Source: Anaerovorax odorimutans
Lineage (GTDB): Bacteria; Bacillota; Clostridia; Peptostreptococcales; JAAYPU01
Reading direction: 5' to 3'
DNA length: 64,000 bases
NCBI GenBank assembly: GCA_016841185.1
Contig: JAENZQ010000003.1
Coordinates: 25,501-89,500 of the forward strand
Shown: positions 15,455 through 15,682 of the stretch, one piece after another
Layout: each line of letters opens with the position of its first letter
Position numbering within the stretch: position 1 is the first letter of the stretch
Notes under the pieces: generated by a model
Told to the model about the DNA's origin: nothing
The model's database searches: none
What the model saw: only the letters and a program-made list of their open reading frames with translations
Made by a program: the position numbers and the translations under genes

Positions 15455-15682
15455 AGAGTATGGAGTATAGAGTATTGTGCATGGAGTATAAAGTATTGAG
15501 TATAGATTTAATTAGGGGTTAGAGGTGGACAGAAATTTTTGCTTAAGCAAAAATTCTTCCTTTTATACTTACACTTATACCTCCAGCTTTCCTTAATTGT
15601 TAATTCTCAACTCTCCATTATCAATTTCCCTAACCCTCTGACCTTCTATCGCTGCTCACGATGACAGGATCTGAGTATGAAG
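15455..15682. repeat. Composite intergenic element, copy 3 (most complete), between dapF and the dcyD-like gene
   Basis: Module order:
- gagtatggagtatagagtat words (15455-15508)
- ttaggggttagaggt (15512-15526)
- hairpin at 15531-15558
- acttacacttata (15567-15579)
- C/T-rich module ending ctgaccttctatc (15638-15650)
- gctgctcacgatgaca

Each module recurs elsewhere in the window. Confidence 0.85.

Follow-up and report, generated by a model that had tools for sequence, protein, structure and literature searches.

Convergent heptanucleotide arrays and short hairpin modules form dispersed intergenic mosaics in a spore-forming member of the Clostridia

The window (the whole 64-kb stretch of DNA that was analysed, AT-rich with a GC content of ~38%) comes from a spore-forming Firmicute that encodes SpoIIE at 11076-13493 and whose DapF and TatD proteins have their nearest named relatives, at 50-70% identity, among Peptostreptococcales-like Clostridia (Geosporobacter, Maledivibacter, Anaerophilus). 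The focal element is a single composite that lies inside the spacer between dapF and a dcyD-like gene (15426-15686). The other neighbouring genes include fumA/fumB, metG/tatD, metH/comEB, upp/metF and ywlE/rpiB, and these names, like dapF/dcyD-like, had been given in an earlier note on this DNA and were borne out here. The rho gene occupies 57523-58932. No tRNA genes were found in the window, and an Rfam scan (E <= 1) scored only the metG T-box at 24451-24682 on the minus strand and did not match the elements. The main relative used for comparison is a 20.8-kb sequence (L126/L127) of the MAG 'uncultured Eubacteriales bacterium SRP241341_co1_263', which was reached via a cluster mate of an 85% identical DapF homologue. 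The parts of the focal element are the following.

15455-15682: the focal element as a whole
15455-15491: outer C-free heptamer array (AGAGTAT/GGAGTAT), kept in the 85% relative
15492-15627: block of ~135 nt, absent from the 85% relative, spanning the next three parts
15492-15529: inner C-free arm, GAGTAT then TTAGGGG units
15530-15559: core hairpin, CAGAAATTTTTGCttaaGCAAAAATTCTTC
15560-15627: inner G-poor arm
15628-15646: outer C-type, G-poor arm, CCCTAACCCTCTGACCTTC (one G), kept in the relative
15647-15669: small palindromic module, TATCGCTGCTCACGATGACAGGA, kept in the relative

The last of these modules is akin by eye to those at 57048-57073 and 43150-43178, and of these two a fuzzy search found only 57048-57073. 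The remaining elements and fragments of the window are listed here in order of position.

6256-6416: fumA-fumB element; C-free arm of TTAGGGG type, core, then a hexamer array of 95 nt with no G (6322-6416)
6297-6329: core hairpin of the fumA-fumB element, 13-bp stem
13652-13676: REP-like palindrome, reverse complement GTAGGGACAGAGCTTGCCCCTATCC
13652-13711: the same palindrome, then a G-free heptamer array that immediately precedes sfsA
22296-22397: metG-tatD element; C-free arm, GC hairpin (22306-22330), G-free ATACTCY array
24366-24431: GTGTAAG-type array between the T-box terminator and the metG start
24380-24399: small hairpin GTCGCTCCTTCGGAGCAATG inside the GTGTAAG-type array
26461-26665: unrelated long-hairpin element, single copy and free of heptamer arrays, in the spacer between atpC and a brxC-like gene
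38035-38213: metH-comEB element; TTAGGGG-type C-free arm, decayed core hairpin, then CTTATCT-type and C-rich G-poor arms
41557-41763: element downstream of upp; GATTATA-type arm, two REP-like palindromes as an inverted doublet (41656-41680 and 41691-41715), G-free CACTAAC array
43096-43371: ywlE-rpiB element with several arrays, hairpins and a palindromic module; embedded hairpin (43112-43131), palindromic module (43150-43178), GATTATA array, core hairpin (43278-43309), then a G-free CACTAAT array
46080-46198: partial element in a divergent spacer, G-free tracts only
47474-47588: element between prfA and a gene for a 1630-aa protein; AGATAAC-type arm, core hairpin (47523-47554), CTTATCT-type arm
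56880-56985: element after prmC; TAAGATT-type arm, core hairpin (56919-56952, GGTAGAAATTTTGATGA/TCATCAAAATTTCTGCC), CATAATTATTCATT-type arm
57048-57073: palindromic module TGTCATCGCGAGGAGCGATAGCGACG, whose reverse complement starts with CGTC
58965-59085: copy in the rho leader; GATTATG array, weak AT hairpin, 49-nt G-free arm
60441-60513: G-free ATAATCY array, then module TGTCAATGCGAGCGAAC
62187-62210: short C-free fragment CAGATTATGGAGTATAGAG, abutting an ordinary terminator hairpin (62206-62238)

Twelve period-7 arrays of at least 3.5 copies were detected in the window by TRF, compared to a mean of 0.13 and a maximum of 1 in 30 block shuffles, and all 12 are intergenic. Exact 13-mers common to different spacers numbered 76, compared to 6.5 in shuffles (maximum 24). 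The dispersed, mosaic, intergenic family proposed in the earlier note is therefore real, and the five exact shared strings it reported are correct in both coordinates and orientation. However, its list of copies was incomplete, as the rho leader copy was absent from it, and it included the long-hairpin element at 26461-26665, which is a separate entity. What it called word modules mostly turn out to be pieces, two units long, of hepta- or hexanucleotide tandem arrays, and these do not constitute a new sort of repeat because heptameric intergenic SSRs (PMC4692102) and TAACTGA repeats (PMC4679880) have already been described. The possibility that the modules are restricted to this window was also raised there, but they occur in relatives as well.

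Hepta- and hexanucleotide arrays are arranged here as convergent pairs with short hairpins at or near the junction of the arms. A full element reads, on either strand, from a C-free arm through a short hairpin into a G-free arm. This order (C-free or G-type first, G-free or C-type second) was found in 9/9 paired elements of the window, next to minus-strand, plus-strand and convergent genes alike; eight of the nine lie between co-directional genes. Free shuffling of module orientation, as had been suggested, does not agree with this, since every paired element has its C-free array 5' and its G-free array 3'. C accounts for 11 of the 564 nt in the nine left arms and G for 14 of the 624 nt in the nine right arms; the G-free arms are 47-116 nt long with a C content of 20-38%. 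Heptamer units in the arms include GAGTATA, GATTATA/G, TTAGGGG/TTAGTGG, AGATAAC and TAAGATT, while some arms are hexameric (GTAAGT/GTGAAA type). Arrays touch the stop codons of fumA, prmC and ywlE. A rule linking unpaired arrays to start or stop codons was also considered and failed, as three arrays fit and two do not.

Five of the core hairpins are strong (z of -3 to -8 in single folds). They have in common an outer stem, AGAAATT/AATTTCT, and their inner stems are wholly different yet fully complementary, which gives an AT-rich form of (GG)nAGAAATT, a variable and fully compensated inner stem, and AATTTCTn(CC). The heads of the core hairpins vary (CAG, TAG, AAG, ATG), and two of the hairpins begin with GGTAG. 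Automatic alignment of the five cores was out of register, with 5/12 pairs compensatory, and single folds were used instead; the cores are too short and heterogeneous for a covariance model to be suitable. The focal element as a whole folds no better than shuffles (z of -1.4 and -1.3 for the two strands), so a single long structured RNA is unsupported. The arms of the prfA element are complementary (z ~ -3.5), but arm-to-arm duplex energy beats composition-matched shuffles in only ~3-4 of the nine paired elements, and general selection for arm pairing is unsupported because only this minority exceeds the shuffles. The G-quadruplexes invoked by Rehm et al. do not account for these units either, since most of them carry single, isolated G's and the TTAGGGG stretches are short and never provide four G-runs in a row.

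A second kind of module is a set of small GC palindromes lodged within the arrays, with 2-3 copies per family within the 64-kb window. The family GTAGGGACAG..CTGTCCC occurs at 13652, 41656 and 41691, the last two forming the inverted doublet; GTAGCTCCTTC(G/C)GAGC occurs at 24380 and 43112; and TGTCATCG(C/T)GAG..GCGATAG occurs at 57048, 43150 and 15647. A GTAG end is present on two of the three copies of the GGGACAG palindrome, on 43112-43131 and on a repeat from a relative (L370, see below), and a CGTC end is present on the reverse strand of 57048-57073; the remaining palindrome copies have GCAG or GTCG. The earlier statement that these elements are not REP/BIME was too strong, as the small GC palindromes resemble GTAG-tagged REPs (PMC3733652).

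The main relative is syntenic with ~5-29 kb of the window at a coding identity of 81-85%. The flanks of the spacers align well, and the window holds clean extra blocks of 88-180 nt: ~136 nt at fumA-fumB, ~135 nt at dapF-dcyD, ~88 nt at metG-tatD and, compared with an 82% relative, ~180 nt at ywlE-rpiB. The spacer between atpC and the brxC-like gene has ~175 nt extra as well, which corresponds to the unrelated, array-less element. The window was thus the longer sequence at 5/5 large indels. At dapF, fum and ywlE (three of the four heptamer loci, and the cleanest) the block sits where the G-type and C-type arms of the relative meet. Where the fumA block would lie, the relative carries nothing more than a canonical terminator hairpin, AAGGGGacaggaCCCCTTT. 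Comparison with the relatives revealed no TIR, target-site duplication, common sequence or cleavage motif at the block ends, and the block edges fall within arrays.

Outgroups were obtained for one site only, the metG-tatD spacer, which is 126 nt in the window and 38, 192, 12 and 52 nt in relatives with TatD identities of 91%, 87%, 80% and 75%, respectively. Non-homologous elements occupy this spacer in two of the five lineages. The 192-nt spacer belongs to L370 (the relative with TatD at 87%) and consists of AATAATG arms, the core GGTAGAAATTCTTCCtaatGGAAGAATTTCTGACC and an CATAATTATTCATT arm; this core and arm type is that of window 56919-56985, a different locus. Because different elements, or none, are present at this spacer across lineages, independent gains are the simplest reading there. 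For the other four indels, loss in the relative may be responsible, at dapF, fum and ywlE by deletion of palindrome centres. The spacer between prfA and the 1630-aa gene carries an AGATAAC-type element both in the window and in L134, a locus from the same MAG as L370 with a Sua5-family protein 72% identical, but the hairpin differs and the arm is ~300 nt in L134 compared to 49 nt in the window. Some sites thus persist while their arrays change size. No length variants within the population were found among L001-L004, which are identical. In another locus, L005, an array is annotated as 60 extra codons of rsmB.

Array density differs among these genomes, with 9.1 arrays per 10 kb in L370/L134, 2.3 in the window and 1.0-1.9 in L126, L371 and L372, and all array pairs in the relatives' loci are G-type then C-type. 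L370 carries GTAGGGGCTGGTCCTGTGCCTGCCCG five times in 14 kb, four of the copies identical, and three of them form a 45-nt tandem beside hexamer-repeat sequence. It also has a homologue of the window palindrome GTAGGGAC and four ACTCCTTCGGAGT hairpins in two pairs, 45 nt apart within each pair. Judged by sequence, these repeats appear to fit the published GTAG-tagged REPs reiterated in tandem (PMC3733652).

Homology between loci within the window extends beyond single arrays. An alignment of the fum block with the dapF block covers 98 nt at 72% (E 4e-10), and 15455-15530 matches the metG-tatD arm in inverted orientation at 86% of aligned columns over ~70 nt, with the dapF/metG-tatD homology scored as 62 nt at 84% (E 6e-13). 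The inverted match runs across the point where a GAGTAT array passes into a TTAGRGG array, which rules out convergent microsatellite growth. Segments of 62-98 nt common to loci argue that composite pieces were duplicated between spacers, in addition to any local expansion. An ATACTCN array contains the edge of the dapF block, a pattern that ectopic recombination or gene conversion through homologous arrays would be expected to produce.

The order of the arms is not limited to this lineage. Arrays of (GAKTATR)3 were found in more than 116 species-representative genomes of many phyla, including Bacteroidota, Opitutales, Saccharibacteria, Chloroflexota, cyanobacteria and Paenibacillus as well as the window's own relative, and in viral contigs, giant viruses included; (TTAGDGR)3 arrays were found in more than 120 metagenome contigs. 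When adjacent period-7 arrays no more than 300 nt apart were counted as pairs, the ratio of G-then-C to C-then-G order in other phyla was 12:0 and 31:0 (43/43 pairs), and 1:1 in the viral contig set under strict classification. In two Xanthomonas genomes, Rehm et al. counted 70 and 75 pairs and described them as 'always' convergent (PMC4692102). With the rule known for one genus and 43/43 pairs obeying it here, the polarity appears to be general. The central hairpin is common but not obligatory outside the window: z was below -2 in 9/35 spacers between arrays in other organisms, and many arrays abut directly. A candidate set of 'CATYGCGAG/TCGCGAG' modules travelling with heptamer arrays across phyla was rejected, as it occurred at 5/116 loci compared to ~6 expected, and a 26-nt composite pattern had no match in a metagenome search.

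Bacteria have been known to carry heptamer repeats since 1990, and these are over-represented in a large number of genomes; we know of no origin or role established for them. The closest described system comprises intergenic heptamers, GGGAATC in Xanthomonas and GGGGA[T/C]T in Nostoc, reported by Rehm et al. in 2015 (PMC4692102); it builds on Mrazek et al. 2007, cited there and in PMC4679880, who had found heptanucleotide 'long SSRs' to be over-represented. As in those genomes, the arrays here are tandem 7-nt units that are almost exclusively intergenic, near ORF ends and mostly between co-directional genes; their pairs are convergent, with the G-rich strand first on plus and then on minus, and they vary greatly in length and sequence between close relatives. 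Copy number above chance, intergenic location, convergent pairs and variation, all features of long SSRs of the Xanthomonas-Nostoc type, were found in the window, but G-quadruplex tracts were not. Unlike the Xanthomonas and Nostoc repeats, the window units are AT-rich with isolated G's (GAGTATA, GATTATA, AGATAAC, TTAGTGG), many unit types coexist along with hexamer arrays, the arrays surround defined hairpin modules and REP-like palindromes, and the host is an uncultured spore-forming member of the Clostridia. The TAACTGA intergenic direct repeats that MacGregor described in 2015 in Beggiatoaceae, cyanobacteria and Bacteroidetes (PMC4679880) are likewise spacer heptamers; they often immediately precede start codons, occur intermixed with further heptamers and are missing from the shorter spacers of relatives. 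However, that system has one dominant unit, one reported indirect repeat and no hairpin core (PMC4679880).

The palindromes invite a comparison to REP/BIME/REPIN sequences (Di Nocera 2013, PMC3733652; Nunvar 2010, PMC2817692; Bertels & Rainey 2011, PMC3116915). Both are intergenic mosaics of short imperfect palindromes, several here with GTAG or an opposite-strand CGTC end, and the inverted doublet at 41656-41715 and the tandem copies with a 45-nt period in a relative add to the likeness. Unlike those sequences, the present element is mostly microsatellite array, each palindrome family has 2-5 copies in the sequence examined, and neither the window nor the relatives' annotated loci showed a RAYT gene. 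Cyanobacterial STRR heptamers with embedded small dispersed repeats (SDR), attributed to Mazel in 1990 and Elhai et al. in 2008, reportedly carry 20-27-nt hairpins inside arrays; these hairpins show compensatory changes and are present in some strains but absent from others. Embedding of this kind is also seen for the hairpins at 24380-24399 and 43112-43131, which is a resemblance and not membership, as the sequence families and the phylum differ. The elements are also like MITEs in that they are small, non-coding and dispersed, with inverted symmetry overall and presence/absence polymorphism, but they have no defined TIR, no target-site duplication and no related transposase, and their ends are open-ended arrays. 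The kind of repeat is therefore already known, though poorly understood, and combines heptameric intergenic repeats with REP/BIME-like palindromes. New aspects are the host lineage, the AT-rich arrays with their many unit types, a core hairpin that can be defined, evidence that change is focused where the arms meet, the duplication of composite pieces from one locus to another, and the wide reach of the polarity rule.

On balance, the elements are probably non-coding mosaics of two kinds of small repeat, convergent arrays and hairpin modules, that do not amount to one transposon, that grow by slippage and copying, and that are mainly tolerated. Arrays would lengthen and shorten through replication slippage in a 7-nt register, while hairpin modules and adjoining pieces of arm would be copied between spacers, either by ectopic recombination or gene conversion via homologous arrays or by a single-strand hairpin route like that of REP/RAYT. 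New material would enter at the centre and push older arms outward. Transcripts would then carry the elements as intercistronic or UTR stem-loops, with an effect on expression that is at most modest, and the sequences would be mainly tolerated and self-propagating as opposed to dedicated regulators. Neither slippage nor recombination explains the strict 5'-G / 3'-C polarity. It is possible that it results from nascent-strand expansion as synthesis nears a hairpin barrier, from cytosine loss on 3'-ending strands exposed after central breaks, or from selection that disfavours having a C-rich, G-free tract exposed ahead of transcription of its partner.

An alternative that we consider unlikely, though it accounts for several of the comparisons above, is that the whole element is a non-autonomous mobile element moved as single-stranded hairpin DNA by a tyrosine HUH transposase encoded elsewhere. 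A RAYT or IS200/IS605-like enzyme that prefers to insert at the tip of an existing hairpin would, on repetition, produce nesting, and the location of blocks at the arm junction is consistent with this, as are the different elements in one spacer across lineages and the occurrence of one core and arm type at different loci in two species. The GTAG-headed palindromes in several identical copies and the GGTAG start of two core hairpins point in the same direction. However, the core heads are inconsistent, the block ends lack a common sequence, cleavage motif or duplication, and the block edges lie inside arrays, as expected for recombination through repeats. The earlier note had seen no transposase, no TIR with target-site duplication and no CRISPR periodicity, and this holds: Pfam/NCBIfam searches of all large ORFs of the window found no transposase domains, no identical 24-48-nt repeats at regular CRISPR-like spacing are present in the window, and no RAYT or other transposase was found in the window or in the annotated loci of the relatives examined.

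It is also conceivable, but rather improbable, that an undescribed and general DNA-level process is at work in which repeated breaks or replication stalls at hairpin centres are followed by centre-directed synthesis or 3'-end extension that adds or expands G/T/A 7-nt units. The unvarying arm order and the arrival of new sequence where the arms meet would then be its traces. If this were true, a self-growing palindrome would exist from Clostridia to Xanthomonas, CPR bacteria and Bacteroidota.

The remaining explanation of interest is that the arrays are functional cis-elements in RNA, acting as tracts for a multivalent protein, as Rho loading sites or as unstructured leaders, and this too is doubtful. 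The earlier note regarded most copies as probably transcribed. This stands for 24366-24431, which has the T-box terminator on one side and the start codon of metG on the other, and for the other copies it stays a probability. In L370 ~400 nt of mosaic occupies the corresponding position. In a T-box leader, read-through transcripts must cross the sequence between terminator and start codon, so the mosaic there is transcribed and is not an efficient terminator, unless there is an unseen downstream promoter. The core on the minus strand at 6320-6304 is terminator-like, and the relative has a canonical terminator at that site, but the stems of the other cores are AT-rich and lead into TTTCT, and mosaics occur inside the metG leader. 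Among the candidate functions, multi-site tracts could bind a ring-shaped or multivalent RNA-binding protein; the UAG-N4 repeats of the TTAGGGG/TTAGTGG arrays match the HutP site rule, and the GAG repeats recall TRAP. The G-free, C-rich 3' arms, with the lengths and C content given above, resemble Rho loading sites and one element is located in the leader of rho itself, which is suggestive only. As a third candidate, unstructured G-free leaders could keep ribosome-binding sites open, and G-poor arrays do lie directly upstream of the dcyD, sfsA and metG start codons. The prfA site keeps its unit type in the more distant relative (Sua5-family protein at 72%), and Xanthomonas arrays are mostly transcribed, clustered within 50 nt of ORF ends and highly variable between species (PMC4692102). 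Against this, the elements described here undergo fast gain, loss and replacement among close relatives, and such rapid turnover beside functionally unrelated housekeeping genes argues against a dedicated regulatory role. Many unit sequences are present in one genome, hence there is no single binding motif, the unpaired arrays lack a consistent relation to start or stop codons, and similar arrays in the same order occur in unrelated phyla, with GAKTATR arrays even in giant-virus contigs.

Chance low-complexity sequence in AT-rich spacers, or an assembly artefact, is already refuted: the genome is AT-rich and skewed, which makes plain C-free or G-free runs of at least 22 nt a poor discriminator (290, barely above the 252 in shuffles), but the 12 arrays against 0.13 expected, the 76 common 13-mers against 6.5 and the homologous segments of 62-98 nt between loci contradict it, and the short dapF-side spacer of the relative was found in independent assemblies (JGI, ENA, NCBI).

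The mosaics of arrays and hairpin modules inflate the spacers inside operons and leaders of this organism, where they can be mis-called as genes, and they may break metagenome assemblies. The five related genomes, with ~1 to 9 arrays per 10 kb, form a tractable comparative series, and individual gains are visible at orthologous spacers in the present lineage. Any mechanism proposed for these repeats must explain two rules, the 5'-G / 3'-C polarity (43/43) and the concentration of change at the centre of the element.

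The orthologous spacer between the Zn-peptidase gene and rsmB was compared among loci of DapF relatives at 66-67% identity.

L005 12640-12830, and L008 and L009 about 14970-15070: orthologous Zn-peptidase/rsmB spacer

This spacer occurs in three sizes, 45 nt, 100 nt and about 210 nt; the 100-nt version contains the hairpin GTCGGGTCT..CCCGGC, and the version of about 210 nt contains that hairpin together with the hexamer arms TATAAG/ACTTAA. In the annotation of L005 the array was read as 60 extra codons of rsmB.

Within the viral set L256-L369 (for example, contig IMGVR_UViG_2974536336_000001), a 1.47-Mb giant-virus contig and several GVMAG contigs were very rich in arrays of the GAKTATR heptamer. 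Plus-strand matches preceded minus-strand matches in all five mixed viral loci when order was judged by match strand; under strict array classification the order in this set was 1:1. Contig ends frequently hold arrays or small repeats (L050 5589-5624; the starts of L049, L066 and L068; the end of L134). Such sequences have probably broken short-read assemblies, and repeat counts based on MAGs are therefore underestimates.

One small repeat family, TGAAGCCCTAKCAGTAATCTTTGAT ... GCAGGTCTCAT, was found at the following positions.

window 60498-60612: family member
L134 (TatD-87% relative) 11565-11653: tandem repeats at the contig end
L372 (another relative) 16790-16840: apparent relative of the family, judged by eye only

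The loci that this family occupies differ between the window and L134. A separate element lies 3' of the atpC terminator.

26461-26665 (block about 26480-26670): long-hairpin element, ~175 nt

This element contains no heptamers, folds into a single long hairpin (-53 kcal/mol), has the imperfect ends GTTGAAAA..TCTCC and GGAGATTTTCAAC, and is missing from the 85% relative. A search of all fetched sequence found it to be single-copy, the sole exception being a 26-nt match to L107 at 92%.

Two leaders were also considered.

57523-58932, minus: rho
57158-57373, minus: rpmE (L31), 71 aa, downstream of rho and below the size of the ORF list
24451-24682, minus: T-box leader, 119 bits, upstream of metG

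The rho leader is 365 nt long and contains one repeat element. Between the T-box terminator and the metG start, the spacer is wholly replaced in the window versus the relative.

Gene content also differs between the window and the 85% relative (L126): the window's sigma-54 activator and decarboxylase (17973-21235) are absent from that relative. The dcyD-like PLP enzyme has 329 aa in the window (14436-15425) whereas only an 84-aa remnant is found in L126 (10949-11203).

The F-type ATP synthase operon and its surroundings include the following genes.

32409-33461, minus: fused c-subunit gene, 350 aa
32105-32371, minus: adjoining normal c subunit, 88 aa
25137-26408, minus: lone BrxC/BrxD-family ATPase, between the operon and DUF1694

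The 350-aa product is an unusual fused rotor-ring subunit, with four c-subunit repeats visible as four Pfam ATP-synt_C stretches and as 249-nt DNA repeats. No other BREX genes were found near the BrxC/BrxD-family ATPase, the position of which is kept in L126 and L370 (same MAG as L134), not in L372.

47615-52507, plus: gene for a 1630-aa protein (counterpart L134 1993-6867)
59298-60413 and 60774-61997, minus: adjoining genes for an SLH-domain protein and an outer-membrane efflux protein resembling TolC (Pfam OEP)

The sole match of the 1630-aa protein is a weak, mid-protein cytidylyltransferase/NMNAT-like one, and the protein is kept in the more distant relative L134 as 1624 aa, adjoining prfA. 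The 424-aa protein after it had no match in Pfam. The genome with the SLH-domain and TolC-like pair also encodes SpoIIE, and this combination of genes hints that the organism is a diderm (outer-membrane-bearing) Firmicute.
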